Source of the DNA: an uncultured Oscillibacter sp. | GTDB lineage: Bacteria; Bacillota; Clostridia; Oscillospirales; Oscillospiraceae | DNA: 64,000 bases | NCBI GenBank assembly: GCA_964455915.1 | Contig: CAYWAS010000001.1 | Coordinates: forward strand, 43,882 to 107,881 | Direction of reading: 5' to 3' | Shown here: positions 15,526-48,454 of the stretch, in pieces | Layout: the number at the start of each line of letters is the position of its first letter | Numbering within the stretch: the first letter of the stretch is position 1 | Notes under the pieces: generated by a model | Seen by the model: only the letters and a program-made list of their open reading frames with translations | Told to the model about the DNA's origin: nothing | Database searches by the model: none | Made by a program: the position numbers and the translations under genes

Positions 15526-16134
15526 ATGGCTTCTTTAATTGAGATCACGAGCGTTCCCATTGAGATCGAAATGAAGGTCTCGCACGCGAAGCTGGAATAC
15601 ACGCGCGCGACCGCTGACCTGGAGATCTCGCGTCAAAACGGCGGTCTGAGCATCAAAAGCAGACCCATTCACCTGAACATCGATACCTTCGAATCGCGCA
15701 ATTCCGTACACCCGTCTGTCAGCAGCACCGTCTTACAGAGCGCAGAGAGCGGAAAGCAGGCCGCCTATGCCGCTACTGCCGCCTACGCCCAGCAGGGACA
15801 ACTCCTTTTGCAGGCAAAGGTCGATCCGCAGGTCGCGGCACAGTTTTCCTACAACCCCGACCCCAATCGGGTGCCGACAAATATCGGGATCGATTTTATC
15901 CCCTCTGTCGGTCCTGACATCGAATGGGACCCCGCTGTGATGAACATTCGCTTTGAAATGGATAAACTCAATTTCGACTGGCGCATGAATCAGGGGCAGT
16001 TCGAATTTATCCCCGGCGACATCGAGATCTCCGTCAAGCAGCGGCCGGAGGTCATCATCAAGTACATCGGCGGCCCGCTCTATGTTCCGCCGTCCTCCGA
16101 TCCGGACTATGAGCCGATCGATGTGAAGGCGTAA
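15526..16134 (+). CDS. DUF6470/YviE-like flagellar-locus protein
   Basis: 202-aa ORF between flgL and fliW with the YIGGPLYVPPS C-terminal motif recalled for this family. Confidence 0.65.
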   Translation: MASLIEITSVPIEIEMKVSHAKLEYTRATADLEISRQNGGLSIKSRPIHLNIDTFESRNSVHPSVSSTVLQSAESGKQAAYAATAAYAQQGQLLLQAKVDPQVAAQFSYNPDPNRVPTNIGIDFIPSVGPDIEWDPAVMNIRFEMDKLNFDWRMNQGQFEFIPGDIEISVKQRPEVIIKYIGGPLYVPPSSDPDYEPIDVKA

Positions 16135-16148
16135 CGGGAGGTTCTGTC

Positions 16149-16604
16149 TTGATCTACAAAACTCAGTATTTCGGCGAGATCGACTGTGACGAGTCCGAGC
16201 TCTTCCGCTTCCCTGCCGGACTGCCCGGATTTGAGAGCGAAACCGCCTTCCTCCTGATCCCCTTTGCCGAGAGTGGTGGAACCATGTTCAGCCTGCAAAG
16301 TGCTGTCACCTCCTCCCTTTCGTTCCTCGTGATGGATCCCTTCGATCTGCTGCCGGACTATGCGCCGGAGCTGACTGCCGCCGACCTGCAAAGCCTCGGC
16401 ACGAAGGAGCAGGGCGAGCTCTCCTTCTGCGTGCTCTGCGCCTGCAAGGATCCGATCGCGGAAAGCACAGTGAATCTGAGATGTCCGATCGCGCTTCACC
16501 TCGACGCGAAGCTCGGAAAGCAGATCATCATGGATACGGAGCGCTACGGTATGCATCATCGACTCGCTGAGTTCAGCCATCGGGAGGAGCACGATCCATG
16601 CTGA
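16149..16604 (+). CDS. fliW: Flagellar assembly factor / CsrA antagonist FliW
   Basis: FPAGLPGFE, LQS...LSFLVMDPF, TVNLRCPI motifs; overlaps csrA. Confidence 0.95.
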   Translation: MIYKTQYFGEIDCDESELFRFPAGLPGFESETAFLLIPFAESGGTMFSLQSAVTSSLSFLVMDPFDLLPDYAPELTAADLQSLGTKEQGELSFCVLCACKDPIAESTVNLRCPIALHLDAKLGKQIIMDTERYGMHHRLAEFSHREEHDPC

Positions 16605-16870
16605 TCCTACAACGCAAGGCCGGTCAGGCCGTTCATATCGGCGATGATGTCGTCGTCTCCGTCGTTTCGATCGACAGCAGCCGTGTGCGCCTGTCGATCG
16701 AAGCACCGAACCATATTTCCATTCTGCGCAGCGAGCTGGTCGAGGCAAAGCAAACCAACCGCGAATCCATTGCCGAGCCTGCCGCAGCATCGGCGCTGCT
16801 GTCGCTTCTGGAGCCAAAACAGGAGCCTTCCCCCGCCGACTCGTCCGATAAACCACCCCCCAAGCAATGA
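16598..16870 (+). CDS. csrA: Carbon storage regulator CsrA
   Basis: MLILQRKAGQAVHIGDDV...VRLSIEAP...ILRSEL. Confidence 0.95.
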   Translation: MLILQRKAGQAVHIGDDVVVSVVSIDSSRVRLSIEAPNHISILRSELVEAKQTNRESIAEPAAASALLSLLEPKQEPSPADSSDKPPPKQ

Positions 16871-16886
16871 AAAGGAGGTCCTTCCT

Positions 16887-17072
16887 ATGGATATGATGAA
16901 TTCCATCGCGGCTACCGCCATGGACATGAGCGCCGCCCGCTTCGCCGTGGACTACTCCATGTCCGTCACCAAGAAAGTAATGGATACCCAGGAGCTGGCC
17001 GGTCAGGAGCTGCTGAATATGCTCTCCGCTGCCGCTCCCGCCAAGGGGCAGTATATCGACACTTACGCCTGA
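16887..17072 (+). CDS. YjfB-family putative motility protein
   Basis: 61 aa from ATG 16887 behind AAGGAGG; SIAATAMDMS...VTKKVMDTQ...KGQYIDTYA pattern. Confidence 0.7.
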   Translation: MDMMNSIAATAMDMSAARFAVDYSMSVTKKVMDTQELAGQELLNMLSAAAPAKGQYIDTYA

Positions 17073-17107
17073 TCCCCTAAAAATTGATTGAAAAAGGAGC
17101 AGAACTC

Positions 17108-17389
17108 ATGGCCGGAATTTGCCCCCACTGCGGCGCTTCGAATCCCGATGATCTTCCCTTCTGCAATAGCTGCGGAGAGCCGATCCAAGCGGATCTGCGG
17201 CTCATCATGGATATGAAGAACGCCGCCAACCGTCAGCCGCAAAAGACCACCGCCGCCCGTCGCGGGGACGATGACGATTTTCAGATAGACAACGGCGAGG
17301 AAGCCGATGAGAAAAGCTTCCCCGTCCTTCCGGTTGTCTTGACGCTGGCGGCTGCTGCGGCATTGCTGTGGTTCATCTTTTTCCGCTAA
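17108..17389 (+). CDS. Zinc-ribbon protein with C-terminal membrane anchor
   Basis: CPHCG-x-CNSCG double CxxC, acidic linker, hydrophobic tail (VLPVVLTLAAAAALLWFIFFR). Confidence 0.8.
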   Translation: MAGICPHCGASNPDDLPFCNSCGEPIQADLRLIMDMKNAANRQPQKTTAARRGDDDDFQIDNGEEADEKSFPVLPVVLTLAAAAALLWFIFFR

Positions 17390-17405
17390 CGCTATGTCCA
17401 AAATC

Positions 17406-17428
17406 AGCCGGACCCGTCGGGTCCGGCT
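17406..17428. terminator. GC-rich hairpin, probable end of the che-flgM-csrA transcript
   Basis: AGCCGGACCC-GTC-GGGTCCGGCT; weak U-tract. Confidence 0.55.
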
Positions 17429-17529
17429 TCCATCGTTTGCATCTTTCCTGTTATCCTGTTTGCGCAGCACCTTTTCACGGTGAGCACAAAAATAAAAGAG
17501 ATTAGATTCGATTCGGGAGGAGTGATACC

Positions 17530-18867
17530 ATGGTCAATCAGGTATCTTTAACAAAGCTCTGCGGTAAGATCATCGGCGGCGTCATTTTCGCCTTCGCGCT
17601 GCTGTATATCCCCGGCCGCAAGTTCGGCTTCATGGCGCTTCTGATGGCGCTGGGCATCGCGCTGATCCTGCTGAGCCAGGTGGTGGTGCGGGCACACAAT
17701 GTCAAGATGGTGGCGCGCTGTCTGTTCGCCGGAGCCAGCGTCACCATTTTGGTGACGCAGTGCGTCTCCGGACACTATGAGCCGGCGGTGCCGCTTTACA
17801 TCTGCCTCGGCACCCTGTCGGCGCTGTACTTTGACCCCGGGCTGGTGAAATTCAGCTTCTTCTCCGGAGCGTTCTTCTTCGTGATCGAATGCGGCTATCT
17901 GTGCTGGCAGGCCGGAGGGCTCATCGCGGACAGCATGGTCCTTATCGAGCTGGTGGCCGCCGTATTTCTGGCCTATTTCATGGTCGTCTCGACCGTGCGG
18001 ACCGGCTGCCGCTATTTCGACGAGTCCAGCGCCAAGCAGAGCCAGACCGAGGCGCTGCTGACCGAGCTGGACGGCAAAAATCTTCAGACGGCGGCGGTGC
18101 TGGACAAGCAGCAGCAGCTTCTGTCCGACATCGAACAGGTCGCCGACCGCGTGTCTGCCGAGGCGCAGAGCCTGTCCAACCAGTCCGGCTCTCTGGCCTC
18201 CGGTGCCACGGAGCAGGCCGGTTCCATGGAGCAGTTGACCACCTCTGTCAACGAGATCTGTCGCCAGATCCGCGACACTGCCGACTACGCGCAGCAGGTT
18301 CGCGCCGATTCGGACACCATGTATCTCAATGTGAACACCGGCGCGGAGCACATGGACAATCTTCTGGAAGCGATCCACGAGATCGAGACGCGAATGCAGG
18401 CCATCGAGACCATCATCAAGTCCATTGACGACATCGCCTTCCAGACCAATATCCTCGCGCTGAACGCCGCCGTGGAGTCCGCCCGCGCTGGCGCGGCGGG
18501 CAAGGGCTTCGCTGTGGTGGCGGACGAGGTTCGCCGTCTGGCGGGCAACAGCGCGCAGGCTGCCAACGACACCATTCAGGTCCTCAACGACTGCCGCGAC
18601 GCGGTGAAGCGCGGCGTGACTACCGCCGACGAGACCTCCGAGGCGTTGGGGCGCATCAAGGAAAGCGTCACCGCCGTGCGGGAGCAGGCGTTCCGCATCT
18701 CCGATATGTCTGCCGCGCAGTTGGCTCAATTCAACGATGTCAATCAGGAGCTGAGCCGCGTGTCCGATGTGGTGCAATCCACGGCCGCCGCCGCGCAGGA
18801 GAGCTCCGCCACGGTGCACGAGCTGACGGAGCAGGTCACCTACCTGCGCAGTCTCAGCGAAAACTAA
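17530..18867 (+). CDS. Methyl-accepting chemotaxis protein with a multi-TM N-terminal sensor region
   Basis: Several hydrophobic segments in the first ~160 aa; signalling tip [34 protein letters not shown]. Confidence 0.93.
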   Translation: MVNQVSLTKLCGKIIGGVIFAFALLYIPGRKFGFMALLMALGIALILLSQVVVRAHNVKMVARCLFAGASVTILVTQCVSGHYEPAVPLYICLGTLSALYFDPGLVKFSFFSGAFFFVIECGYLCWQAGGLIADSMVLIELVAAVFLAYFMVVSTVRTGCRYFDESSAKQSQTEALLTELDGKNLQTAAVLDKQQQLLSDIEQVADRVSAEAQSLSNQSGSLASGATEQAGSMEQLTTSVNEICRQIRDTADYAQQVRADSDTMYLNVNTGAEHMDNLLEAIHEIETRMQAIETIIKSIDDIAFQTNILALNAAVESARAGAAGKGFAVVADEVRRLAGNSAQAANDTIQVLNDCRDAVKRGVTTADETSEALGRIKESVTAVREQAFRISDMSAAQLAQFNDVNQELSRVSDVVQSTAAAAQESSATVHELTEQVTYLRSLSEN

Positions 18868-18870
18868 AGC

Positions 18871-18900
18871 AAAGCCCTCTCCTTTCGGAGAGGGCTTTTT
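18871..18900 (+). terminator. Rho-independent terminator of the MCP gene
   Basis: AAAGCCCTCTCC-TTTC-GGAGAGGGCTTT followed by Ts. Confidence 0.85.
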
Positions 18901-18915
18901 CCGCGCTTATGCGTG

Positions 18916-18946
18916 AAAAAAGAACGGGCTTTCGCCCGTTCTTTTT
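18916..18946 (-). terminator. Rho-independent terminator of flagellin
   Basis: On the minus strand: AAAAAGAACGGGC-GAAA-GCCCGTTCTTTTTT. Confidence 0.88.
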
Positions 18947-18973
18947 CCTTTTCCGATAGAGAGGTCTGCGTCC

Positions 18974-20638
18974 TTACTGGAGGAGCTGCAGCACGCCCTG
19001 AGGAACAGCATTCGCCTGCGCGAGCATCGCCTGCGCGGACTGAATGAGAATGTTGTTCTTCGTGTAGGCCATCATCTCGTCGGCAACATCGGTGTCGCGG
19101 ATGGTGGACTCGGCGTCCTGAATGTTCTCGGTCATGACGCTCAGGTTATTCTGGGTGTGCTCGAGGCGGTTCTGGATCGCGCCGAGGTCACCTCTGGTGG
19201 AGGAGACGGAGTTGATGGCAGCCTTGATCTTATCGACCGCAGTGGCAGCGCCGTCCTGCGTGGAGATGTCCACGCCGCCAATGCCCAGAGAAGTAACATG
19301 CATATCGCCGATCTTCACAGCCATCTGGTTGAACTCGTCCGCGGTGTCGCCGATCTGCAGGGTCAGACCCTTGTCGCCCTTGGCAAAGGTCATATCGCCC
19401 TTGTAGACAATGCTGTCTGCATCGATGCCGGCAGCGGTGTTGGCGGCAGTAGCAACCTCAAACTTTTCACCGGTAACGCGGCTCACCTCTGCCGCCACCT
19501 TTGCGGCATCATTAGCAGCCACATAACCGGCATCGGCAGCCATCTTAATCAAGTGAACATCGTCAGATACAGACTCGAGCGTCTTCGCGTCCACATTGCT
19601 GTCCACCAGCATGAACTTGTGACCGTTGATCTCAAAGGTCGCCTTAGCCATGTTCTCCTCAGTGGCAGGCTTGTTGTCGGTAGTCTTGTCCAGCGCAACT
19701 ACCTTGCTCAAATCCAGGATCTGCATGGAGTCCATACCCTTGACCGGATTGGCAGCAATCGCACCAGCCGTCGAGCTGGCAGAGAAAGCAGAGTTGCCGG
19801 AATCACTGATACCCAGAGCGGTAATCTTAGCACCGTCAGCGCCAGCCACCTTGCTGGTAAACTGAATGGCATCGCTGACATTGGTAATCTCAAACGCGGA
19901 GGACAGAGCGCTGTCCTTCTTCAGCTCAGCAATAACAGCATTTGCAAGCTCCTTAGCCGTAGGCTTTTTGTTGGTGATATCGGCAATCGTATACTCTGTA
20001 CCATCGTCCGAAGCAAACACCGTGTCAGAGCTCGCCTTGAAATTGACAGTTTTGGACTTTTCCACACCATTTTCTTCCCAAGCTACAGTGTAAGAAAATG
20101 TCTGGCTTGCTGCCATAGCATTGCTAGCAGCAGTAAATGCACCGCTCTTCGTGGAAGCTGTGACCACCTTGCTGGCGTTGAAGGAGATATTGCCGTCGAT
20201 GTTCCCCTTGCCCGCGAGGGAGCCGTCCATCAGCTTGATGCCGTTGAAGTTGGCGCTGTCCGCGATACGGTCGATTTCGGTGCAGAGCGCGGTGACTTCC
20301 TTCTGCAGGTTCGCGCGGTCGACCTCGTTATCATAGGTGCCGTTGGCAGACTGAGTCGCCAGATAGCTCATACGGTTGAGCATATCCTGGACTTCCTGCA
20401 TCGCACCCTCAGCGGTCTTGACGAGGCTGATGCCGTCCTTCACGTTCTTGCTCGCGGCGCTCAGGCCGGAGATCTGGGCACGCATCTTCTCGGAGATGGC
20501 GAGACCGGCAGCGTCGTCACCGGCGCGGTTGATCTTGTAGCCGGAGGAGAGCTTCTCGAGGTTCTTGCTCAGAGCAGAGGTGTTGTTGTTGTAGTTACGG
20601 TAGGCATTCATTGCCATAATATTGTGCTGAATTCTCAT
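18974..20638 (-). CDS. fliC: Flagellin
   Basis: MRIQHNIMAMNAYR...LEKLSSGYKINRAGDDAAGLAISEKMRAQI; C-terminus GAIQNRLEHT...AQAMLAQAN...VLQLLQ. Confidence 0.99.
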   Translation of the reverse strand: MRIQHNIMAMNAYRNYNNNTSALSKNLEKLSSGYKINRAGDDAAGLAISEKMRAQISGLSAASKNVKDGISLVKTAEGAMQEVQDMLNRMSYLATQSANGTYDNEVDRANLQKEVTALCTEIDRIADSANFNGIKLMDGSLAGKGNIDGNISFNASKVVTASTKSGAFTAASNAMAASQTFSYTVAWEENGVEKSKTVNFKASSDTVFASDDGTEYTIADITNKKPTAKELANAVIAELKKDSALSSAFEITNVSDAIQFTSKVAGADGAKITALGISDSGNSAFSASSTAGAIAANPVKGMDSMQILDLSKVVALDKTTDNKPATEENMAKATFEINGHKFMLVDSNVDAKTLESVSDDVHLIKMAADAGYVAANDAAKVAAEVSRVTGEKFEVATAANTAAGIDADSIVYKGDMTFAKGDKGLTLQIGDTADEFNQMAVKIGDMHVTSLGIGGVDISTQDGAATAVDKIKAAINSVSSTRGDLGAIQNRLEHTQNNLSVMTENIQDAESTIRDTDVADEMMAYTKNNILIQSAQAMLAQANAVPQGVLQLLQ

Positions 20639-20906: not shown

Positions 20907-20960
20907 GGGCAACGGAAAATTTTATGCAAAAATTTTGTGGTTGCGCGTAAGGAGGCGTGT

Positions 20961-22391
20961 ATGGAGCTGAGCTTTTCGCGGCTGTGTCGGGACGAGGCGA
21001 TGCGCGGGCGCTTGCGTGCGCAGATCGACCGCTGCGCGCTGCGCGGGCAGAGCTGGGAGCTGGCGGCGTGTGCGCTGCCGGAGGGCTGTCGCCCCGCGCG
21101 GGTGACGCTGGGGTTTTACCGGCGCGCGGACGGGGCGTATGTGATGTACTGGCGGCCGACGGTGGTCTATCGCGGGGATGGTCGGGGGCTGGGGCTGCTG
21201 TTTGCGCAGTGCCTGTGGTCGTTCGAGCGCTACGAGCTGCTGTCGGCGCGGCTGGGGTCGCTGCGCGCGGAGCTCGGCGCGGAGGAGGAATCGCCTCTCC
21301 CCTGCCCTGCTGCGTCGATCGGGAGCGGGTCGCTGCGCGCGCGGCTCGGCGCGCGGGTGTTCGGTCAGGCGGCGGCGGTGGAGGCCGCGGCGTATTATCT
21401 GGATGGGCATCTTGCCAAGTGCGCACCCGCGCGCCCGCTCTCGCTGATCCTGCACGGGCCGACGGGGGTCGGCAAGTCGGAGCTGGGGCGCGCGGCGGCG
21501 GAGCTGCTGACGCAGTCGGACGGCGAAGCGTGGCAATCGGTGTGGACGGAGCTGAACACCTTCACGCACGCGCACTCGGTCTATCGTCTGACAGGCGCAC
21601 CGCCGGGGTATGTCGGCTACGAGGACGAGCCGGTTTTCGCGGCGGTGCAGCGCAATCCGCGCACGGTGTTTCTCTTCGACGAGCTGGACAAGGCGCACCC
21701 GGAGCTGTGGAAGGTGTTCATGTCCGTGCTGGACGAGGGGCGCTGTTCGCTCCATCGCGTTGCGCGGGACGGGCCGCGCGAGCTGGATCTGCGGCGGTGT
21801 GTGTTTCTGTTCACGACGAATCTTGATCTCAGCGCTGCCGCGATGCGCACGGTGGGCTTCGCGGCGGAGGCAGACGGCAGCAAAGCAGCCGCCGCACCGG
21901 TCGAGCTGGCGCAGCGGCTGTATGATGAAAATGAGGTCGGGCGTCGGGCGCTGATCCGCCATGGCGTCCTGCAAGAAGTCGCGGGACGCTTCACGGGGAT
22001 CATTGGCTTCCGTCCGCTGGACGATGCAGCGCAGCGGCAGATCGCCGCGCGAAAGGCCGTCTCACTCGGCGAGGAGTACGGACTGCACATCGCACGCGTC
22101 ACGCCGGAGGCCGCCGCAGCGCTCCTGCCCGCAGAGGCGGGCGTGTCGATCCGCTCCGCGCTGTGTCTGATCGAGGCAAAGCTCGCTCCGCTGTATCAGC
22201 GGGCGGCAGCCGGTGCCGCGTCCGCGGCGCTTCAGCTCACATCGATAGACGGCATAGTGATGCTCTCGGACTTCTCCTCCGCGGGCTTTTCCTCCTTCGC
22301 GGGCTTCGACGCCGTGGGCTTTGACACAGCGGGCGTCGCCGCGCGCATGGAAAGCTCATGCACCGAATTCTCGTCAGACAAAAAACGGTAG
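20961..22391 (+). CDS. Stand-alone AAA+ ATPase of the ClpA/ClpB second-NBD (D2) type with an unrecognised N-terminal domain
   Basis: RVFGQAAAV, Walker A GPTGVGKS, pore loop LTGAPPGYVGY, Walker B LFDELDKAH, sensor-1 FTTN, Arg finger EVAGRF; AAGGAGG RBS before ATG 20961. Confidence 0.85.
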   Translation: MELSFSRLCRDEAMRGRLRAQIDRCALRGQSWELAACALPEGCRPARVTLGFYRRADGAYVMYWRPTVVYRGDGRGLGLLFAQCLWSFERYELLSARLGSLRAELGAEEESPLPCPAASIGSGSLRARLGARVFGQAAAVEAAAYYLDGHLAKCAPARPLSLILHGPTGVGKSELGRAAAELLTQSDGEAWQSVWTELNTFTHAHSVYRLTGAPPGYVGYEDEPVFAAVQRNPRTVFLFDELDKAHPELWKVFMSVLDEGRCSLHRVARDGPRELDLRRCVFLFTTNLDLSAAAMRTVGFAAEADGSKAAAAPVELAQRLYDENEVGRRALIRHGVLQEVAGRFTGIIGFRPLDDAAQRQIAARKAVSLGEEYGLHIARVTPEAAAALLPAEAGVSIRSALCLIEAKLAPLYQRAAAGAASAALQLTSIDGIVMLSDFSSAGFSSFAGFDAVGFDTAGVAARMESSCTEFSSDKKR

Positions 22392-23101
22392 AGATGCAGT
22401 CCGTCGGACGAGAGGAAATAGTTCCCCGCGATGATGTTGGTGCCGTGCTTTTCGTCCACACGGTAGATGTCGATGCGCATACAGCTCTGCCCGTTGATCA
22501 TGACCAGACCGTCGCGGGAGTAGACGCGATACATCTCCATGCTATCGCCGTCCAGCTCCAAAACCGAGGGCGAGATCGCTTTGATCCGATCCACTGCGGA
22601 GGAAAAGGTGATCGCCTGCATATTGCCTGCCTGCGCAGCGCTTTTCGGCGGGTAGGTCATTGCGGCAGGGACCTGTTCCAGCGTGACGGTGCAAACGCCC
22701 GTCTCCCAGCGAATGCCCATGGCGATCGCCTGCCTCTCTCCGTCCCCCTCGGGCTTGGGAAGGCGATGGACCAGATAGGCGCTCCCGCTCTCCGTAGAAA
22801 GGTCGGGCGCTTCCTCGGTCTCCTGCAAGGACTCCTCGGCGTAGAGAAAGCCCATATCCTCCGTTGTGAGGAGCGCCGCGTAAGCGGCGACCACGGAGGC
22901 CGCGTTCGTCATACCCTCATAGCGGTATGCGATGAGCGTGACTGCTTCCTCCTCGTCCGCGCTGTCCGTTTCCTCCGGCTCCTCCGGCTCTTCCGCGTCT
23001 TCCGCGGAGAACAGGCGGTCCTTTAATAAGAACACCGCAGCCAAAACGATCACAGCGGCCAACGCGATGATCACTTTTTTATTGCCTAATAATCGTTTCA
23101 C
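22232..23101 (-). CDS. Membrane-anchored hypothetical protein
   Basis: 289 aa; N-terminal basic plus hydrophobic anchor (KKVIIALAAVIVLAAVFLL), acidic linker; last gene of the DUF342 operon. Confidence 0.75.
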   Translation of the reverse strand: MKRLLGNKKVIIALAAVIVLAAVFLLKDRLFSAEDAEEPEEPEETDSADEEEAVTLIAYRYEGMTNAASVVAAYAALLTTEDMGFLYAEESLQETEEAPDLSTESGSAYLVHRLPKPEGDGERQAIAMGIRWETGVCTVTLEQVPAAMTYPPKSAAQAGNMQAITFSSAVDRIKAISPSVLELDGDSMEMYRVYSRDGLVMINGQSCMRIDIYRVDEKHGTNIIAGNYFLSSDGLHLYRFLSDENSVHELSMRAATPAVSKPTASKPAKEEKPAEEKSESITMPSIDVS

Positions 23102-23138
23102 TCGTTTTCTTCTCCTTCAGCCGCTATTCGGCTGCTCT

Positions 23139-25067
23139 TCACATACAGCGGATCGTCACACTGTCCCGATCCTGCACGACCTGAAGAAAGCCCGCTTCGC
23201 TCCCGTTGACCGCGAGATAAACCGGCTGCTCCAGCGTCTCAAAATCCAGACCGGAGTGCTCCAGAAGATCCATCAGATAGTAGGGCTGGCCGTCCTCCTT
23301 CGCTTGCAGGGTCAGCGGCTTTTCGTTGAGCAGAATGTGAACGGAGTGAGCGCTCACACGCGGCTCGGCAGGCGTCTCGATCTGCACGGTCGGCTCTTCG
23401 ATGTGCGCCTCCACCACCTCTTCCGGCTGCTTCGGTTCCGATTCCGGCTCCTGCTCCTGCGCAGGCTCCTCTTCCCGTTCTGCCGTGGGCTGCTTCTCCA
23501 GCGTCAGAATCACATCGCCCTGCTTGAGCGGCGTGTCCATCGGACAGTCGAGATTGTTGAGCAAAACGCGGCCGCAGAAGTCTTCCCCGAGGAACTGCCC
23601 CAGCGTTTTTTTCGCGTCGGTCCCCTTCTGCGCCGGAACGAAGCGGATCCTGTCTCCGGCATGGACCGGCATATTGATCGCAGCCTCTTCCTCGTTGAGC
23701 TGTAGCACCGCCGGTATAGACGGCTCGCCGCGCAGCACGACCAACTGCCCGTCGTAGGTGACGCTCATGCTCTTTCCGGTCCCGCCAAGCATATCGGCGT
23801 AGGTGTAGCCATTCATCAGCAGCACATCGCGAAGGCTCAGCGTCCCGCTTCGGAACAGCTTCGCCGGTGCGCCGTTGAGCATGACGACATAGCTGTCGTT
23901 CAACAGACCGAGACCAGCGGAGACCGCGATCCCCAGCGGGGTCGTATACTCCGGATTGTCCAGCCTGATCTGCTCCGAAAAGGCACTCTTGGCAAAATTA
24001 TTGCCGGCGATGGCCACTCGTCTCTGATCCATGCCGAGGCTCTCCGCGACCTTTTCGCGCAGACCGCTCAGCTTGCTTCCGCCGCCCGCCAGAAATACCG
24101 CAGACGGCGCAGCGCCGTTCACCGAGACGATCTGCTCGGCGATCGCTTCGGCGAGTTTGGACAAGGGCGCGTCGATCGCAGCGCAAATGTCCTCATAGCT
24201 GTAGGTTTGCTCCAGCCCGAGGATATCGATGAAGCTGCTCTCCTCGCCGACCTTCAAGCCGCGCTTGATCTGCTCCGCCGTTTGGAAATCCACAAGGTAC
24301 GCCTGCATGAGCGCCTCTGTGATCTCATCACCGGCGACCGTCGCCATGGTATAGCCGACAACGCTCCCGTCCTTGCAGATCGCGATATCCGTGGTGCCCG
24401 CGCCGATGTCCACGAGTGCCAGATTCAGCATTCGAAGCTCCGACGGGATCGCCGCGTTCATGGCGGCGATCGGCTCGAGCGTCATGCTCGCGACCTGAAG
24501 TCCGGCCGAGCGCATCGCGGCGTAAAGGCTCTCCACGACCTCCCCGGGCAGGAAGGTCGCCACGATATCCACCTCCGCCACAGCTCCGCTATGGTCGAGC
24601 AGCGCCGTGAGCGGGTAACCGTCCAGCCGATACTGCGAGACGGTGTAGCCGACGAGGAAAAACTGCTGTTTTGTCTCCTCCTGCGCCTGCAGCGCCTGCT
24701 CCGCTTCGGAAACCGCGCCGGCCTCCAATCGGCTGATCTGCTCGGCATCGATGCTCTTCCCGCCGGTCAGGGCGAGAGAAAAGCTGCCGCGCTCCGTGCG
24801 CAGCGCGCGACCGGCGGCGGCAACGCAGACGCGCTCCAGCCGCACGCCCAGCCGCTCCTCCAATCGGTGTGTGACCGTCTGCGCCAGTCCGGCCACCTGC
24901 TGGATATTGTCGATCTGACCGTCGATCATGGCTCGCTTGCTGTGCTCGGCAAGCTCCACATCGAGGACCTTGAGACGGTCCCCCTCCGCGACACCTACGA
25001 GCCCCACAACGCAGCGGGTCCCGATATCCAGCGCATAGATCAGATCATTTCCGGCTGCTGCATTCAT
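23139..25067 (-). CDS. FtsA-like actin-fold ATPase with C-terminal beta-grasp (ThiS/MoaD-like) repeats
   Basis: Actin-fold motifs ALDIGT, LEPIAA, LVDIGAGTTDI, VFLAGGGSKL, TTPLGIA; C-terminal repeats such as LAVNGSEAGFLQVVQDRDSVTI and VLLNN...PLKQGDVI. Confidence 0.85.
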   Translation of the reverse strand: MNAAAGNDLIYALDIGTRCVVGLVGVAEGDRLKVLDVELAEHSKRAMIDGQIDNIQQVAGLAQTVTHRLEERLGVRLERVCVAAAGRALRTERGSFSLALTGGKSIDAEQISRLEAGAVSEAEQALQAQEETKQQFFLVGYTVSQYRLDGYPLTALLDHSGAVAEVDIVATFLPGEVVESLYAAMRSAGLQVASMTLEPIAAMNAAIPSELRMLNLALVDIGAGTTDIAICKDGSVVGYTMATVAGDEITEALMQAYLVDFQTAEQIKRGLKVGEESSFIDILGLEQTYSYEDICAAIDAPLSKLAEAIAEQIVSVNGAAPSAVFLAGGGSKLSGLREKVAESLGMDQRRVAIAGNNFAKSAFSEQIRLDNPEYTTPLGIAVSAGLGLLNDSYVVMLNGAPAKLFRSGTLSLRDVLLMNGYTYADMLGGTGKSMSVTYDGQLVVLRGEPSIPAVLQLNEEEAAINMPVHAGDRIRFVPAQKGTDAKKTLGQFLGEDFCGRVLLNNLDCPMDTPLKQGDVILTLEKQPTAEREEEPAQEQEPESEPKQPEEVVEAHIEEPTVQIETPAEPRVSAHSVHILLNEKPLTLQAKEDGQPYYLMDLLEHSGLDFETLEQPVYLAVNGSEAGFLQVVQDRDSVTIRCM

Positions 25068-25088
25068 TCAGCCCACGCTCCTTCTTCG

Positions 25089-25469
25089 TTATCCCTTGCC
25101 GATCGCCTTCATCGCGCCCTGCAAGCCCTCCAGAAGAGATTCCTTCGTAAAGGGCTTGAAGAGAAAGCCCTTCGCGCCCAGCGCAGCGGCCTTATCGATA
25201 ATGTCGCCATACGCCATAGACGAGACCATAAACACCTGCGCGTCCGGCCACTTTTTCCGCAGCGCATCGCAGGTCTCCAGCCCGTCCATACCAGGCATCA
25301 CAATATCCATCGTCACAAGATCGGGCATCACCTGTTCATACTGCTCCAGCGCTTCCTCGCCGGTCCTGCAATAAGCTGCGATCTCAAATTCGCTGCCCTC
25401 CAGCATTTTTTTCATTTCCGAGTGGATCACGCGTGAATCGTCAACCACCATGAGTTTATAGTGTGCCAT
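25089..25469 (-). CDS. Second CheY-like single-domain response regulator
   Basis: VVDDS, TMDIVMP (phospho-Asp), VSS and FKPF conserved; follows cheX. Confidence 0.88.
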   Translation of the reverse strand: MAHYKLMVVDDSRVIHSEMKKMLEGSEFEIAAYCRTGEEALEQYEQVMPDLVTMDIVMPGMDGLETCDALRKKWPDAQVFMVSSMAYGDIIDKAAALGAKGFLFKPFTKESLLEGLQGAMKAIGKG

Positions 25470-25484
25470 TGGTACTCCCCCTTC

Positions 25485-25979
25485 TTATTGTGCTCTTTGC
25501 GAAGTGAGCGTCCAGGAAAAGACCGCCCCTTCGTTGCTGTCGCTTATGAAATCCACCGAATATACTCTGTTTTCATTCTGCATCGCGGCGGCATCGTTAT
25601 GATGCCTGTAGATCGTCGGCAGAAAGCGGGCGGACTGCCCGGTCAGGTTGTAGAGCTCCGAAACGAATCGTCCGCAGACCATGTTGAAAAATTCCGTTGC
25701 GTACTCCTCTACCTCTTCCTGATCGCTCGCCGGTGCCCCGATCATGCCGGCCGCCAGCCGCTCAAAAAGACTCTGCTCGGCCTCGAGCCACATGAGCAGT
25801 GTGAATTCACCCCTCGTCTCGGCGTATACGACACCGAGCGGCTGCGTTGAAAAGCGTATCGGTCCGCCCTGTGCTCTTGAGATCTGTATTCCGCTGATCT
25901 GCTCTAATATCTCGCAGAGAAGCTGCTCAGCCAACTGGCTGACCCACTCCTGCTCGATCGCTTTTTGCAAGCAGATCAC
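25485..25979 (-). CDS. cheX: CheX-family CheY-P phosphatase
   Basis: VEEYATEFFNMVCGRF ExxN motif; size about 164 aa. Confidence 0.8.
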   Translation of the reverse strand: MICLQKAIEQEWVSQLAEQLLCEILEQISGIQISRAQGGPIRFSTQPLGVVYAETRGEFTLLMWLEAEQSLFERLAAGMIGAPASDQEEVEEYATEFFNMVCGRFVSELYNLTGQSARFLPTIYRHHNDAAAMQNENRVYSVDFISDSNEGAVFSWTLTSQRAQ

Positions 25980-25988
25980 CTCCCCTGC

Positions 25989-27716
25989 TTAGTAAATACT
26001 TTTGATTTCCTCTTCCTTGACATCGTAGACCATGCGGCAGCGATGACAGGGCTCCTTCGCCACCCAGGTGCGATTGTGGATCTTCAATGCGGTGACCGGA
26101 TAGACATCATCTGCCTCAAACCGGCACTTGGAAAGATCCGGAAGGATCAGCTTCAGGCTCTCGCGCGCGGCAAGCTGCTTCTTTTCCTTCATTCCCAGCA
26201 TGGACTTGCGCAGCCGCGCCCTTGCGAGCTCCGGCGTACTGCTCTCCTGTCCGCCGATCCGCTCCAGATAGCCAAGATCCTTCTCAAGCCGCTCCATTTC
26301 CGCGTGGATCTCCTCCAGCCGGTCCTCCACGGCCTGCATCTCCGTTTGAACATAGGGCAGCACGCCCAGCGTCAGCTCCGTTCTGCGGCCGGACTGCGCG
26401 CCGACCATCTTCGCGCGTATGGAGTAGGCCGCTGTCAAAGCACCGCCGATCACGCTGCCGCGGCCGCTCGTCACATTGATCCCCTCGTCGCTGAAGATCT
26501 GCGAGGTCATGATGCAGTCCGCATAAACGGTCTTCCCCGCATAAAGCACGCAGTTTTCAAGATATTTCGCGCGGACGCAGCCCTTGCTTCGCAGCAGCGC
26601 CCGATGATCTCCGACAACGCCGCGGCTGATGACAAGGTCTCCGCCTGCCTCCACGGTCGCAGCCTCTACAAGACCGTCGATCGTAACAGTGCCGCTTGCC
26701 CGCACCTCGAAGCCTTCCCGCACATCTTTATAGATGTGGACATCTCCGTTGAACTCGATGTTGCCCGTCGAATAGTCGACATCGCCGCGGATCTCCAGCA
26801 CCGGACGGACATGGAAGGAGCCGTTGGCAAATTCCAGATGCCCTTCGCGCGTTGCGACCAAATGCAGCCCATCGTCGCTGATCGCGGTGTTGCTGCCCTT
26901 CGGCACCTTCGCCGGTCGGACCGGCTTCGGGCGGACGATCTTTCCGTCCACCTGAACACCCGCCGTTCCCTCCTGCGGAAGTACGATGTCGCAGATGCAG
27001 GTGTCCTTCTCGATCTGACGGACATAGTTCATCGAGCGGTAGTCCGCCGTGCCGTCTTCGTTTATCATGACCTCCCGCGTGACCTCGCGGGGGAAGAGCT
27101 CCGTCACCTTGCCGTCGGACCCCTCCACCGGCTCCGTGCCCGCCGCAATGGGGATCAGTTCAAAATACGGGTGCTCCTGCAGCAGACGCACGACCTCGTT
27201 GGAGTCGATGCCGGTCATCACGCCGGCGTCCTGAAGCGCCTTGCCCAGCGCGCCCGCCTCGAACTGTCCCTCGGGACCAAAGGGCGGAAAGAAGAATACC
27301 CACGCCAGCATCTTGTCTCTGGACAGATAGACCTGACAACTGCTGCTCAGCGAGAAATTCTCCTGCTCTTTTCCCTTTTCGATCAGATGGAGACGGCTCT
27401 TCGCGTCCTGCTCCAGCTTGACGATCAGACGAACGCGCTCCTGCTCCAGAAGGTGTGCCGCCCGTTCCGGATCGCGTACATTTTTCGCCGGAGCGATCTC
27501 AAGCAGCGGCGGCACGGACGAGTTTGTCCACAGCTCCCACAGCTTCAGCGAAGCACCTTTGATCTCCGGCAGATAGATCTTATGCTCAATCGGACGATCG
27601 TCCTCGTCCGAGGTATGTTCAAGCTCTGAAGGTTGAGAAGGTACATCTTGTTCGATTTTCTCCGATTCGACCGCATTTTTGCGAAACGGGCTTCCAAAGT
27701 GCCATTTCCTGCTCAT
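25989..27716 (-). CDS. DUF342/FapA family protein
   Basis: LSRDKMLAWV...ALQDAGVMTGID N-terminal motif; GDVDYSTGNIEFNGDVHI...GGDLVISRGVVG beta-helix repeats. Confidence 0.88.
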   Translation of the reverse strand: MSRKWHFGSPFRKNAVESEKIEQDVPSQPSELEHTSDEDDRPIEHKIYLPEIKGASLKLWELWTNSSVPPLLEIAPAKNVRDPERAAHLLEQERVRLIVKLEQDAKSRLHLIEKGKEQENFSLSSSCQVYLSRDKMLAWVFFFPPFGPEGQFEAGALGKALQDAGVMTGIDSNEVVRLLQEHPYFELIPIAAGTEPVEGSDGKVTELFPREVTREVMINEDGTADYRSMNYVRQIEKDTCICDIVLPQEGTAGVQVDGKIVRPKPVRPAKVPKGSNTAISDDGLHLVATREGHLEFANGSFHVRPVLEIRGDVDYSTGNIEFNGDVHIYKDVREGFEVRASGTVTIDGLVEAATVEAGGDLVISRGVVGDHRALLRSKGCVRAKYLENCVLYAGKTVYADCIMTSQIFSDEGINVTSGRGSVIGGALTAAYSIRAKMVGAQSGRRTELTLGVLPYVQTEMQAVEDRLEEIHAEMERLEKDLGYLERIGGQESSTPELARARLRKSMLGMKEKKQLAARESLKLILPDLSKCRFEADDVYPVTALKIHNRTWVAKEPCHRCRMVYDVKEEEIKSIY

Positions 27717-27752: not shown

Positions 27753-27792
27753 AAAAAGCCAGAAAGCGGTGCAAGCCCGCTTTCTGGCTTTT
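27753..27792 (-). terminator. Rho-independent terminator after the MCP gene
   Basis: AAAAGCCAGAAAGCGG...CCGCTTTCTGGCTTTT inverted repeat. Confidence 0.85.
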
Positions 27793-27874: not shown

Positions 27875-29689
27875 TCAATACTTGTCGAAGTTGCTGGCAG
27901 CGCCGGCGGTATAGCCGCTCGTATCCTCGGAGACTTCGGCAGCCGCGGGAAGCTCCGCCACCTCGGTGTAGCCCGACGCGCCGCTGCGCAGCTTGAACTT
28001 CAGCATGAGCTCCTTGATCAGTGTCGCCTGGCTGGACAGCTCCTCGCTGGCCGCGGCAGACTCCTCGCTGGTCGCGGAGTTCGTCTGCACGACAGAGGAG
28101 ATCTGGTCGATGCCCTCGGTGACCTGCGCGATGGCTTCCGCCTCTTCCTCGACGGCCTTGGCAATGCCGCTGATGGACTTCTTCAGCTCCTCCGTGGCGT
28201 CGACGGTCCTCTTGAGGGAATCCGAGACCTTCTTCACGATCTCGTTGCCGTCCTCCACCGCGTTGATCGAGCGGTTGATCAGCTCCTTGGTCGCCTTCGC
28301 AGCCTCGTCGGACTTGGCAGCAAGGTTGCGCACCTCACCGGCCACGACAGCGAAGCCCTTGCCGGCGCTGCCCGCGCGGGCAGCCTCCACGGCCGCGTTC
28401 AGCGCGAGGATATTGGTCTGGAACGCGATATTCTCGATGGTCGCGATGATCTTGCCGATCTCCTGCGAGGAGTTGGAGATATTGTCCATGGCGCTGACCA
28501 TCTCGTTCATGTTGTGGGCACTTTCGTCAAGCTGGGAGCTGGCATAGCTGGTCCGCTCCATGGCTTCCTCGCTGCCCTTGGCATTCTTCTGCGCGTTGTT
28601 GGAAATGTCGGTGATCGTGGCGGAGAGCTCCTCCACCGCGCTCGCCTGCTCGGTTGCGCCCTGCGCCAGCGCCTGCGCGCCGACAGAGACCTGCTCGGAA
28701 CCGGAGGAGACCTGCTCGGCGCTCATGGTGATCTGCGCGAGCGTATCGCTGAGCTGATAGTTGATCTCGCGGATCGCCTCACGCATGGGGATCAGGCCGC
28801 CGACATAAACGCTCTCGTCCTTAAAGCGCAGCGCAAAGTTGCCCTTTGCCATCTCGCCGAGCAGATAGGAGACTTCGCCCACCACGGTTTTCAGGCAGTC
28901 CTGACTGTCTCGCAATGCCTGTGCCATCTCGCCCAGCTCGTTCTTGCTGCTGAAGTCCACGGGGATATCGAACTTGCCCTGGCTGAAGCCGACCAGCGCA
29001 CCGTGGACCTGCGCGGTGGGAACCGTGATGCCCCTGATGATCGTCAGCACGAGTGCGATGACGAAGATCGTGGCGACCACCATGGCGGCGATCACGACAA
29101 AGATCGTCGTCAGAACATTCTTTTCGATCCTCGTGCGCTCAGCGTCCATGCCGGAGACAAGATATGCGTCCAGATTCTCCGCAGCCGTTGCCATTTCCGT
29201 CAGCATGGGAGTGTCCTGCTCATAAACGATCTTGTTCGCCTGCTCAAGATAGGTCGCGTCGCCGGTGCTCTGGTATCTCTCGTAGAGGGAGATGACATTC
29301 TCGGCGATGGCGCGCCACTCGGAATTGACCCTGTCATACTCCTCCAGCAGAGACTTGTCCGTCAACTGATGGGGCCAGGTCTTCGCCATGCTGTCGGTAT
29401 AAGCCTGCATCGTTTCCAGACTCTCCTTCGCCGCATCGATCAGAGCGGCGTTCGCGGCGCTGTCGGGGATCAGGAGCGCATCGCGGTAATCGCGTCCCGC
29501 CATGACCGCATTCAGTCTGGCAAAAAGGATCGATTCATTGGTCTCAACATCTTCATTCAGCAAGAGCTCGTATTCCTCTCGCTGGTTCATCATCATGAAC
29601 ATACAGGCAAGAATGATCGCTACCGCGATCACGATCGTGATCGCATACCCCAGAACGAGGCTTTTCTTGATTTTCATGTTTTTGAGCAT
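27875..29689 (-). CDS. Methyl-accepting chemotaxis protein (2 TM, helical extracellular sensor, HAMP)
   Basis: TM1 near the N-terminus, TM2 then HAMP (ITVPT...[12 protein letters not shown]); tip [20 protein letters not shown]. Confidence 0.95.
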
Positions 29690-29758: not shown

Positions 29759-30493
29759 TTACACAACTTCTCCGTATTTTCCCTTCGGAACATCGCCGAA
29801 TATCCTGCCGTGGCTCATCGTGATCACACGCTTGCGCAGGATACTGACATACTTGTCCGCGTGGGTCGCCATAATGACCGTCGTTCCCTTGCGGTTGATC
29901 TCGGTGAGCAGGTGGAAGATATCCCAGATATTATCATCGTCCAGATTCGCCGTGATCTCGTCGAGGACCAGGATCGCCGGACTGTTGATCAGCGCGCGTG
30001 CCAGCTCGACGCGGCGGCACTGCCCGATGGACAGCTCGACCGGAAAGCATTTCTCAACGCCGCTCATGCCCACAAGCCCAAGCACCTTTTCCACGCGCCG
30101 GTCCAGCGACTCCTTCGACTCACCAAAGCGGCGACCGATGCGCGCGGTCATTTCCAGATTATCCTTCACCGTCATCTTGCGCACAAGCGTCTGCTGCTCC
30201 TGCCACACGCGGCCAAACATCAGCCGGACGGACTTCTGGTGGAAAGGACTCAGATTTGCAAGATCTAACTGATCGACCATCACGCTTCCCTGATCCGCCT
30301 TGATCTGTCCTGTGATCAGATTCAGCAGCGTCGTCTTGCCGCAGCCGCTCTCTCCGACGATAAACACAAATTCGCCCTGCCTGATGTTGAGGTTGATGTG
30401 CTCGACACCTAACACGGTCTCCCGCTTTCGCAGCAGTCGTTTGCGGCCTGTGGGATAGCTCTTCGCTACATTTGTCAGCTTCACTTCCGGCAT
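29759..30493 (-). CDS. FtsE-like ABC ATPase (no ftsX adjacent)
   Basis: Walker A GESGCGKT, LVLDE, TTVIMATH and FtsE-like tail RKRVITMSHGRIFGD...GKY; signature LSIGQ and D-loop ITANLD are atypical. Confidence 0.8.
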   Translation of the reverse strand: MPEVKLTNVAKSYPTGRKRLLRKRETVLGVEHINLNIRQGEFVFIVGESGCGKTTLLNLITGQIKADQGSVMVDQLDLANLSPFHQKSVRLMFGRVWQEQQTLVRKMTVKDNLEMTARIGRRFGESKESLDRRVEKVLGLVGMSGVEKCFPVELSIGQCRRVELARALINSPAILVLDEITANLDDDNIWDIFHLLTEINRKGTTVIMATHADKYVSILRKRVITMSHGRIFGDVPKGKYGEVV

Positions 30494-30595: not shown

Positions 30596-31459
30596 ATGAA
30601 AAAAACCTACGAACCAAATCATAAAAAACGGCGACTGCTTGCCACTTTCCTTCTGGCACTGCTCTGCATCGGCAGCGCGGAGCTGATCGCCTGCTCCATT
30701 TTTGCTCCCGAAACCTTTGCGCGCATCACCGCGCCGGTCCGCTCCGCCGCCGATGCCGTGGTCGATACGGGGCGCTCTGTCGCTTCCGACCTCGCGCTCT
30801 GGTACGCCGATTTGACGGCACCCGACGAGGAGCCCGCGCAGGAAGTCGACGAGCCGACGCTCAAAAACACCTCACCGATCCTGGACCCCGTCATCACTGA
30901 GCTCATCAGCGATGGGGATACGGACATTCTGACCGGCGGCACCGTCAATGTCGTCTACTACGCTCAGGGAGACGACGCGTGGGCGGAGCAGCCTTACGGC
31001 AGCGACCGCATCGGTCGCTACGGCTGCGGCCCCGTGGCGCTTGCCATGGCCATCAGCAGCATGACGGACGAAACGATCGATCCGGTCCAGGCCGCGCAGG
31101 AAGCGGTCGCCGCGGGATACTGGGCGAAGGGACATGGCTCGTACCTGTCCATCGTGACCGGCCTTGCGAAAAAGCACGGGCTTCACGCCGAAGCGGTCGA
31201 GAGCAAGACCGTGGATTCGGTGCAGGACGCGCTCCTTTCCGGCAAGCTCCTTGTGGCGCTCATGGGGCCGGGGCATTTTACCAACGGCGGGCATTTTATC
31301 CTCATTCGCGGCATCACGCTTCAGGGAACGCTGCTCGTAGCCGACCCCAACAGCATCGACCGGAGCTTGCAGGAATGGGACCCGCAGTTGATTTTGGACG
31401 AGCTGTCCCACAGCACCGCGCACGGCGCGCCGCTGTGGGCGCTGAGCAGCGAACCTTAA
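30596..31459 (+). CDS. Membrane-anchored C39-like (papain-fold) peptidase
   Basis: N-terminal anchor; YYAQGD..W, GCGPVALAMAIS (Cys), GHFILIRG (His), VADPNS (Asp). Confidence 0.85.
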   Translation: MKKTYEPNHKKRRLLATFLLALLCIGSAELIACSIFAPETFARITAPVRSAADAVVDTGRSVASDLALWYADLTAPDEEPAQEVDEPTLKNTSPILDPVITELISDGDTDILTGGTVNVVYYAQGDDAWAEQPYGSDRIGRYGCGPVALAMAISSMTDETIDPVQAAQEAVAAGYWAKGHGSYLSIVTGLAKKHGLHAEAVESKTVDSVQDALLSGKLLVALMGPGHFTNGGHFILIRGITLQGTLLVADPNSIDRSLQEWDPQLILDELSHSTAHGAPLWALSSEP

Positions 31460-35251: not shown

Positions 35252-36034
35252 TTGGCTAAGATCATTACTGTGACCAATCAGAAGGGCGGCGTCGGGAAAA
35301 CGACCATTACAGCAGCCCTTATTGCCGAGCTCCAGCGCAGGGGTGCGCGTGTTCTGGGCGTGGACATCGACCCGCAGGGCAACCTCGGCTTCTCGTTCGG
35401 GCTGAACATCGAGGACGGGCTTTCCGTTTACGATGTCCTGACCGGAAAATGCTCGACCGCCGAAGCGATCGCGCACACGGACTACGGTGACATTCTGCAC
35501 ACGGACATCATGCTCTCGGCCTTTGTCTCGGGAGACAGCGGCTTCCACACGAGCAAGGACACCATGCTCTCGTACCATCTCGATCAGGTCAAAAGCGATT
35601 ACGACTTCATTTTCATCGACACGCCGCCGTCCCTGAATATTCTGACGATCAACGCCTATGTCGCCTCGTCGGAGCTCATCATTCCGATGAACGCCGAGGT
35701 TTTGAGTCTGGTCGGCATTTCGCAGATCCAGGACACCGTTGAGGCGATCCGCAAAAGCTCCAATCCGAATCTGAAGGTCTGCGGCATCGTTATGAACAAA
35801 TACAACGCGCGCCTGATCTCTCACCGTGAGATCCTGGACATGGCGGAGCAGCTCGCCGAGCAGATGGACACGAGGGTCTTCCCTGCCAAGATCCGAAACG
35901 GCATCGATGTCGCGACCGCACCTGCCCACGGGCAGAGCGTTGTGACCTACCGCCCGAAGTCGAATCCGGCGATGGACCTTCGCAAGCTCGTCGACGCGGT
36001 CGCAGGCGACCGATTCTCCCGCACAAGAAAATAA
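35252..36034 (+). CDS. Orphan ParA/Soj-family ATPase
   Basis: Deviant Walker A NQKGGVGKTT, DIDPQGN, IDTPPSL; no parB in the window. Confidence 0.92.
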   Translation: MAKIITVTNQKGGVGKTTITAALIAELQRRGARVLGVDIDPQGNLGFSFGLNIEDGLSVYDVLTGKCSTAEAIAHTDYGDILHTDIMLSAFVSGDSGFHTSKDTMLSYHLDQVKSDYDFIFIDTPPSLNILTINAYVASSELIIPMNAEVLSLVGISQIQDTVEAIRKSSNPNLKVCGIVMNKYNARLISHREILDMAEQLAEQMDTRVFPAKIRNGIDVATAPAHGQSVVTYRPKSNPAMDLRKLVDAVAGDRFSRTRK

Positions 36035-48377: not shown

Positions 48378-48454
48378 TGTAAAACCCATCCTTTACTTCT
48401 TTTCTATAAAAATCTATAAATTATTTTTTTAACCTGTCTTGCGAAGGTATTCTC

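Follow-up and report, generated by a model that had tools for sequence, protein, structure and literature searches.

A flagellum-restricted family of FtsA-like proteins with ubiquitin-like domains in Clostridia, and its separability from a FapA-CheX-CheY module

Background

In Helicobacter pylori, FapA sits at the flagellar pole, binds to PilM, a cytoplasmic protein of the cage, and works downstream of PilMNO, and these proteins govern aggregation and biofilm formation, not swimming speed (bioRxiv 10.64898/2026.10.23.761471, a preprint of October 2026). FapA is widespread and also found in Bacillota, and the flagellar cage has been described as restricted to the Campylobacterota (same preprint). 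The H. pylori pilMNO operon lies outside the flagellar loci (PMC10823254). Here we describe a locus in an uncultured Oscillibacter sp. in which a gene for FapA and a gene for an actin-fold protein of the FtsA/PilM class lie close together. The stretch of DNA that was analysed, referred to as the window, comprises 64,000 nucleotides (assembly GCA_964455915.1, contig CAYWAS010000001.1, positions 43,882 to 107,881 of the forward strand), and the locus consists of five genes, encoding FapA (DUF342), CheX, a second CheY (CheY2), an FtsA-like protein and a membrane protein.

A preliminary description of this DNA had taken the five genes for a single pathway. Our comparison of related genomes showed that they form two independent flagellar accessory modules, FapA-CheX-CheY2 on the one hand and the FtsA-like protein with its membrane protein on the other. 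What is new is the flagellum-restricted family of FtsA-like proteins with a ubiquitin-like tail, and not the five-gene operon. The family is large and uncharacterised, and constitutes a new variant within the FtsA/PilM machine scaffolds; a search of the literature yielded nothing on an FtsA-like flagellar protein in Clostridia, nor on a fusion of beta-grasp domains with FtsA.

The FtsA-like family and the presence of flagella

The distribution of the FtsA-like gene was determined in two sets of genomes. In the order sample, which comprised 301 genomes and in which a match with E < 1e-99 was taken to be a true orthologue, the gene was found 21 times. FlhA is present in 20 of these 21 carriers, as compared to 66 of the 301 genomes overall, and the sole carrier without FlhA is an 88%-complete assembly of 460 contigs. 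In the class sample of 399 scored Clostridia genomes, with FlhA as the marker for flagella, orthologues were detected in 81, which represent 19 GTDB families, and FlhA in 136. Each of the 81 carriers possesses FlhA, and the gene is absent from all 263 genomes that lack FlhA (Fisher p = 4e-48, with no correction for phylogeny). Among the flagellated Clostridia of the sample, about 60% have it. Moreover, within four genera (g74, g99, g54 and g79) the congeners that lack FlhA lack the FtsA-like gene as well, and these contrasts argue against a purely phylogenetic artefact. We therefore consider it highly probable that the association with flagella is real. The assignment of the protein to flagellar biology in the preliminary description is thus supported both by its position in the source genome and by the strict co-distribution with FlhA.

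The possibility that the protein replaces FlhF or FlhG was considered and rejected, since FlhF is found in 23 of the 25 carriers tested and in most of the flagellated non-carriers, a distribution that is not complementary. The source genome itself has no FlhF above cut-off, and neither flhF nor flhG is found between flhA and sigD. A ParA/MinD-like ATPase of 260 amino acids (AAA_31, CbiA, MipZ) is encoded at 35252-36034 on the plus strand, divergent from fliD, in a position that is kept in Oscillospiraceae; it may be the sole flagellar regulator of the MinD type. A promoter of the SigD type (TAAA-N13-17-CCGATA[AT]) was found upstream of the FtsA-like gene in only one or two of 119 loci and was not informative.

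Architecture of the FtsA-like protein

The FtsA-like protein and its membrane neighbour comprise the following features.

23139..25067, minus strand: gene of the FtsA-like protein, 642 amino acids (PF14450, PF11104, PF06723)
23913..25067, minus strand: actin-fold ATPase part, residues 1-385, with a 1C subdomain of the FtsA/PilM type (TIGR01174, Foldseek, PDB profile search)
23493..23885, minus strand: beta-grasp domains 1 and 2, residues about 395-525 (AlphaFold fragment; predicted local distance difference test, pLDDT, >93 in the folded parts)
23352..23492, minus strand: acidic, Pro/Glu-rich disordered linker, residues 526-572 (alignment of homologues; pLDDT <50)
23142..23345, minus strand: beta-grasp domain 3, residues 575-642, ThiS-like (PF02597 4e-5 on the fragment; ThiS 3cwi)
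22232..23101, minus strand: membrane protein, 289 amino acids, with an N-terminal transmembrane helix, an acidic linker and conserved domains of no assigned fold

The actin-fold part resembles both FtsA and PilM. The ftsA model TIGR01174 covers residues 10-380 with 100.6 bits, which is below its cut-off of 175.85. The two PilM models, PF11104 and TIGR01175, give 54.3 bits (over the cut-off of 27) and 70.4 bits (under the cut-off of 133), respectively. When the AlphaFold model was used as a query in Foldseek, FtsA was the best match (7q6f, E 2e-19, TM-score about 0.6 on the target) and PilM the next (2ych, 1.6e-15), and in a profile search of the PDB the two tied, both at about 1e-13; the identity to FtsA structures is 14-17%. 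The ATP motifs DxGT (D14-T17), DIGAGTTD (220-227) and GGGS (328-331) are invariant across 32 homologues, in agreement with the earlier statement that the protein keeps all actin ATPase motifs. The family comprises about 570 clusters (50% identity, E <= 1e-30), which carry only generic names in the databases: FtsA, 'FtsA domain-containing', PilM or DnaK.

Residues 388-642 were modelled separately by AlphaFold on the basis of 43 diverse homologues (pLDDT 87.5). The model predicts three beta-grasp units, the third of which (beta-beta-alpha-beta-beta, pLDDT 94-98) is placed beyond the disordered acidic linker, whose length varies among homologues. Foldseek related the modelled tail to linear poly-ubiquitin, ISG15, ThiS (3cwi, TM-score 0.68), TGS and Urm1, with domains 1 and 2 resembling tandem ubiquitin/ISG15. 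Likewise, Pfam beta-grasp families were matched in most of 43 family members (Ub-Mut7C in 37, ThiS in 36 and TGS in 19). The several ubiquitin-like repeats lacking a terminal Gly-Gly that had been noticed before are therefore recovered as three predicted units and a C-terminus that reads ...VTIRCM; the C-termini in the family are variable and also lack the Gly-Gly. Considering the absence of a free C-terminal Gly-Gly, the ubiquitin-like domains would act as interaction modules and not as carriers. An amphipathic membrane-targeting helix is absent, and the protein ends in a beta-grasp domain.

The FtsA-like protein is distinct from the FtsA of the divisome. In the source genome (96% complete) ftsZ is located on another contig (C9, region 15900-19289), directly after an ftsQ-like gene, which agrees with the earlier observation that the FtsA-like gene lies outside the dcw/ftsZ context. 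It is the sole FtsA-family match in that genome, the second match being MreB. The preliminary description had named such a status of only FtsA, together with a septal location, as an argument against its proposal. Although the protein is literally the only FtsA, this is uninformative, because all 30 Oscillospirales genomes that were tested, with or without the FtsA-like protein, lack a canonical FtsA. Both proteins are present in four genomes of other Clostridia families, including Ruminiclostridium herbifermentans, where the true FtsA scores 186-332 bits and has about 415-430 amino acids where intact, and the FtsA-like protein scores 90-108 bits and has 709-787 amino acids. The score below the ftsA cut-off and this coexistence bear out the earlier view that the protein is not the divisome FtsA. 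As regards cell division itself, the Oscillospirales evidently divide without FtsA, with an ftsQ-like gene and ftsZ adjacent and no canonical ftsA in the 30 genomes.

The downstream membrane protein is a single-pass protein that is mostly extracytoplasmic and has no match in Pfam or NCBIfam. Its orthologues are limited to Oscillospiraceae, and about 50 of 80 loci have one downstream of the FtsA-like gene. When these orthologues were aligned, the anchors proved variable and the N-termini unconserved, with signals of the lipoprotein type in two of them. A pairing analogous to PilM-PilN was rejected on account of these three features (unconserved N-termini, two lipoprotein-type signals and a partner found only in Oscillospiraceae). 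A weak match to FliL (E 0.024) is confined to the basic tail and the transmembrane stretch.

The FapA-CheX-CheY2 trio and the organization of the locus

The window has a G+C content of about 58% and is almost wholly taken up by flagellar and chemotaxis genes. The latter include cheA-cheW-cheR-cheB, a gene for a methyl-accepting chemotaxis protein (MCP), cheV-cheD-cheC and cheY1. The flagellar genes are flgN-flgK-flgL-DUF6470-fliW, fliC, fliD-fliS, two rod genes and sigD, together with flhA, flhB, fliR/P/Q/O, fliY, fliM, motB/A, flgE, fliK, fliI, fliG and fliF. The five minus-strand open reading frames are flanked by the MCP gene (27875-29689) and by a convergent AAA_2 gene. The features of the upstream half of the locus are listed below.

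25989..27716, minus strand: FapA/DUF342 protein, 575 amino acids, with FapA_N, a beta-solenoid and an N-terminal extension (PF20250 2.5e-33, PF03961 3e-56)
27492..27578, minus strand: conserved motif LP..L..LW..W..PP in the N-terminal extension of FapA, residues 47-75 (alignment of 10 FapAs from trio loci)
25485..25979, minus strand: CheX-type CheY-P phosphatase, 164 amino acids (PF13690)
25089..25469, minus strand: CheY2, a single-domain receiver of 126 amino acids (PF00072 5e-26; best NCBIfam match CheY)
27753..27792, minus strand: hairpin of 17 bp and U-run, in the MCP-FapA spacer (sequence; fold of the spacer)

All five open reading frames of the preliminary description, DUF342-cheX-cheY2-FtsA-like-membrane protein, were recovered at the same coordinates, with intergenic gaps of 9, 15, 21 and 37 nucleotides and a GGAGG-type ribosome-binding site ahead of each gene, and its domain assignments agree with the Pfam, NCBIfam and structure matches. 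The genes probably constitute one transcription unit. A scan of the operon for promoters and terminators gave no sigma-70-like promoter upstream of FapA. The 158-nucleotide spacer between the MCP gene and FapA folds with -60.5 kcal/mol (z = -4.1), and the hairpin within it stops about 35 nucleotides short of the FapA start. It either terminates the MCP transcript or serves the five genes as a leader attenuator. Considering its position, transcription of the unit would begin upstream of the hairpin or continue from the MCP gene. At the other end, the AAA_2 (ClpB D2-like) ATPase of 484 amino acids (20937-22391, plus strand) shares a 3' overlap of 160 nucleotides with the membrane-protein gene; its position is kept in Oscillibacter-type loci and the overlapping tails are not conserved.

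The FapA of the locus is the only copy in the source genome and scores over cut-off for both PF20250 (115.4 bits) and PF03961 (191.5 bits). The N-terminal extension, with the LP..L..LW..W..PP motif followed by a helix, is common to the FapAs that are encoded with CheX-CheY (10 aligned) and is lacking in those that come after CheC-CheD. The motif (residues 47-75) is a candidate docking helix for CheY2. CheX matches PF13690 with 35.8 bits (cut-off 27) and contains E96-x2-N99 and then P121, a near-consensus version of the CheC/CheX active-site motif in which the spacing from N to P is one residue short; a sequence search of the PDB with CheX gave no match. In CheY2 the receiver residues are all present (D10, D11, D55, S83, F102 and K105). 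It is 37% identical to CheY1 (48009-48389), which is located at the canonical fliY-cheY-fliO position. A comparable gene pair is that of Borrelia burgdorferi, where the gene for the dedicated phosphatase CheX adjoins that for its CheY, CheY3, which is the motor-switching CheY.

Two separable modules

Inspection of the gene neighbourhoods revealed that the two parts of the locus are usually apart. Of 80 related loci, about 50, mostly in Oscillospiraceae, have the FtsA-like gene in a block fliD-fliS-(129-amino acid gene)-[C39-like peptidase]-FtsE-like ATPase-MCP-FtsA-like-membrane protein-[AAA_2], without FapA, CheX or CheY. The complete five-gene order is limited to a minority sub-lineage, consisting of the window plus G250, P0003, P0009, L036, L055 (Allofournierella) and L056. 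A genome of the same genus, G190, has the genes for the FtsA-like and membrane proteins and lacks FapA altogether. Conversely, G099 and G273 have the FapA-CheX-CheY trio and no FtsA-like gene. In G166 and G134 the trio, and in G213 FapA together with CheY, is on another contig than the FtsA-like gene, and in other genomes FapA comes after flgG-cheC-cheD. As the trio and the FtsA-like gene each occur alone, the five-gene set is largely not syntenic in relatives. The co-occurrence check that had been proposed for the five genes thus turned out against them as one conserved system.

Outside the Oscillospiraceae the neighbours of the FtsA-like gene are nth, glgA and genes for membrane GAF-GGDEF, VanW-like, DUF2225, cotJ-like and nrdD products. 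It follows that proximity to flagellar genes is a trait of the lineage, whereas the phyletic link to flagella is general. In the Lachnospiraceae Hungatella (L066) and Lacrimispora (L059 and L062), the gene lies after spore-coat genes resembling cotJB/cotJC and before nrdD, the gene for the anaerobic ribonucleotide reductase.

Some further observations concern these neighbourhoods. In the order sample the nearest orthologue of the FtsA-like protein (G250:C103, L008; 69% identity) has the five-gene order and belongs to a different GTDB family (f18), whereas the protein of the same-genus genome (G190:C34, L009) is only 52% identical and comes without the trio; such a contrast may reflect lateral transfer of the block, or else a problem of binning or taxonomy. 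Between fliS and the MCP gene, Oscillospiraceae keep an orphan ABC ATPase (29759-30493, minus strand; best match FtsE with 170 bits, below cut-off, no FtsX adjoining) and, beside it, a secreted protein resembling Peptidase_C39_2 (30596-31459, plus strand). These two could form a flagellum-dedicated pair for the activation of wall hydrolases. Near the edge of the window are encoded a PilZ-domain protein of 196 amino acids (4224-4814, minus strand), possibly a flagellar brake of the YcgR/MotI type, and adjoining it an SLH-domain surface protein of more than 1391 amino acids (3-4175, minus strand).

Proposed role and alternatives

The explanation that we favour treats the two modules separately and regards the FtsA-like protein as a flagellum-associated cytoplasmic scaffold or adaptor, although we would give it not quite an even chance. 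From the gene content, the folds, the phyletic pattern and the separability observed in this analysis we infer a place for it at or near the flagellar basal body, where it would be an ATP-binding scaffold comparable to the cage PilM of the Campylobacterota. With its actin fold it would form oligomers or attach to a membrane machine, and the flexible ubiquitin-like tail, in place of the membrane-targeting helix of FtsA, would recruit partners. Such a PilM-like role at the motor is a more tentative proposal than the scaffold function as such. In the trio, CheA would phosphorylate CheY2 and CheX would reset CheY2-P, which would most likely act on FapA through the N-terminal helix that is particular to the CheX-CheY-linked FapAs. 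Since H. pylori FapA binds PilM, FapA gated by CheY2-P and CheX is a plausible partner of the FtsA-like protein in the lineage of the window. Such a partnership would allow chemotaxis phospho-signalling to bias motility behaviour other than motor switching. In its most extended form, the proposal would make the family the Gram-positive counterpart of the cage PilM: an actin-like, ATP-dependent assembly on the cytoplasmic side of the motor that recruits FapA, responds to chemotaxis phosphorylation where CheX-CheY2 is present, and couples swimming signals to the switch between the motile and the surface-attached state. We consider that full picture rather improbable.

Several observations weigh against a scaffold function at the flagellum. 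The gene is missing from 55 of the 136 flagellated genomes and hence does not encode a core part, and the co-distribution, for which the Fisher value disregards phylogeny, cannot be separated from chemotaxis or other traits of motile cells. Outside the Oscillospiraceae both flagellar neighbours and the membrane partner are missing. The latter is lineage-restricted, and some of its orthologues are lipoprotein-like without a cytoplasmic part; neither a membrane anchor in the FtsA-like protein nor a partner resembling PilN/PilO was found. With respect to FapA, the adjacency is suggestive and is weakened by the usual separation of the two genes and their lack of mutual dependence. In Oscillospirales, FapA is present in 18 of 21 carriers of the FtsA-like gene versus 31 of 46 flagellated non-carriers, which is a weak enrichment without mutual dependence, and G190 carries the gene without any FapA.

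Of the alternatives, the one that survives best places the FtsA-like protein off the motor, in the decision between the motile and the sessile state that involves cyclic di-GMP (c-di-GMP), for instance as an adaptor of a cyclase or phosphodiesterase, or in cell-chain or surface behaviour. The gene immediately downstream encodes a membrane GAF-GGDEF protein in six loci from five families (L109, L110, L113, L120, L123 and L128; the Ruminiclostridium type and four others) and an EAL-HDOD protein in several Oscillospirales (L016-L019, L058, L065, L074 and L085), and a PAS-GGDEF gene is near in L027. In addition, the effect of H. pylori PilMNO/FapA on aggregation and biofilm instead of swimming speed is in line with it. 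Nevertheless, these neighbours are not universal and the FtsA-like protein has no c-di-GMP-binding domain. We consider this role unlikely, and it overlaps with the scaffold explanation without excluding it.

The pathway put forward in the preliminary description, in which the FtsA-like protein polymerises or acts as a scaffold under the direct control of CheY2-P and so governs the placement or assembly of flagella, is suggested by the tight gaps on a single strand, the identical gene order in a handful of related genomes and the precedent of the FapA-PilM interaction in H. pylori. However, the trio and the FtsA-like gene are independent in most genomes, G099 and G273 have the former without the latter, and nothing indicates a CheY-binding site on the FtsA-like protein. 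The five-gene pathway is thus improbable, and direct control of the FtsA-like protein by CheY2 is equally so.

If the protein were a scaffold of the chemoreceptor array, or of some other chemotaxis structure, and not of the flagellum, this would suit the MCP gene that lies directly upstream in most Oscillospiraceae loci, and the phyletic pattern fits it as well, since flagella and chemotaxis co-occur. Outside that family, however, only occasional MCP- or CheY-like matches are found nearby and no che gene is conserved as a direct neighbour. We regard this function as improbable. Finally, that the protein is a divergent division FtsA of the source organism is hardly credible: although it is the sole FtsA-family match in a 96%-complete genome and FtsA is its nearest solved structural relative, its ftsA score is too low (100.6 bits versus 175.85), it has no membrane-targeting helix, its gene does not adjoin ftsZ and is absent from 263 of 263 FlhA-negative genomes, non-flagellated relatives have neither protein and still divide, and other Clostridia have both.

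The flagellar motors of Gram-positive anaerobes are poorly described, including those of the abundant gut Oscillospiraceae and Lachnospiraceae. Recognising the family as flagellum-linked would correct a widespread mis-annotation as 'cell division protein FtsA' or 'PilM', add a candidate accessory component of the Gram-positive flagellum and offer a concrete test for an analogue of FapA-PilM outside the Campylobacterota. The FapA-CheX-CheY trio, in turn, points to a second chemotaxis output via FapA.

Comparison with known systems

As in the spirochaete CheX-CheY3 pair, the CheX gene is next to that of its CheY. CheY2, however, is an extra copy, and the canonical CheY1 is encoded elsewhere. The FapA of the window shares both defining Pfam domains with the FapAs of Vibrio vulnificus, Borrelia burgdorferi (BB0267) and H. 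pylori (HP0884), and it lies among flagellar genes, like the Borrelia protein in its flhF-flhG-flgV-fapA operon. In contrast to these FapAs, it has the N-terminal LW..W extension and pairs with CheX-CheY, and the partners HubP, EIIA-Glc and PilM are not identifiable for it.

With FtsA (7q6f, 7q6d and 4a2a) the FtsA-like protein shares the actin fold with a 1C-type subdomain and intact ATP motifs, and FtsA is its best structural match. It differs in that it scores below the TIGR01174 cut-off, has no C-terminal amphipathic helix, is encoded outside the dcw cluster and occurs in flagellated genomes only. The PilM of type IV pili (PF11104, TIGR01175; 2ych and 5eou) is of the same fold class, with PF11104 above the gathering score, and likewise has no membrane anchor of its own, PilM being dependent on a bitopic partner. 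Yet the score for TIGR01175 stays below its cut-off, no pilN/O/P or pilin genes are found near the FtsA-like gene, the family is absent from non-flagellated genomes, and the downstream membrane protein has neither similarity to PilN nor a conserved cytoplasmic peptide.

The cage PilM of the Campylobacterota is distinguished from the Clostridial protein by several features. The latter scores nearer to FtsA, carries three ubiquitin-like domains and is without neighbours of the PilN/PilO type; its hosts are Gram-positive and lack a periplasmic cage. Nevertheless, the two have much in common. Each has a cytoplasmic actin fold of the FtsA/PilM class that is tied to flagella and not to pili or division, and each may be encoded apart from the flagellar operons. 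Moreover, FapA is the partner of PilM in H. pylori and a neighbour here, in a minority lineage and with the genes for CheX and CheY2 in between, and the FtsA-like family is limited to flagellated genomes (81 of 81 carriers in the class and 20 of 21 in the order sample).

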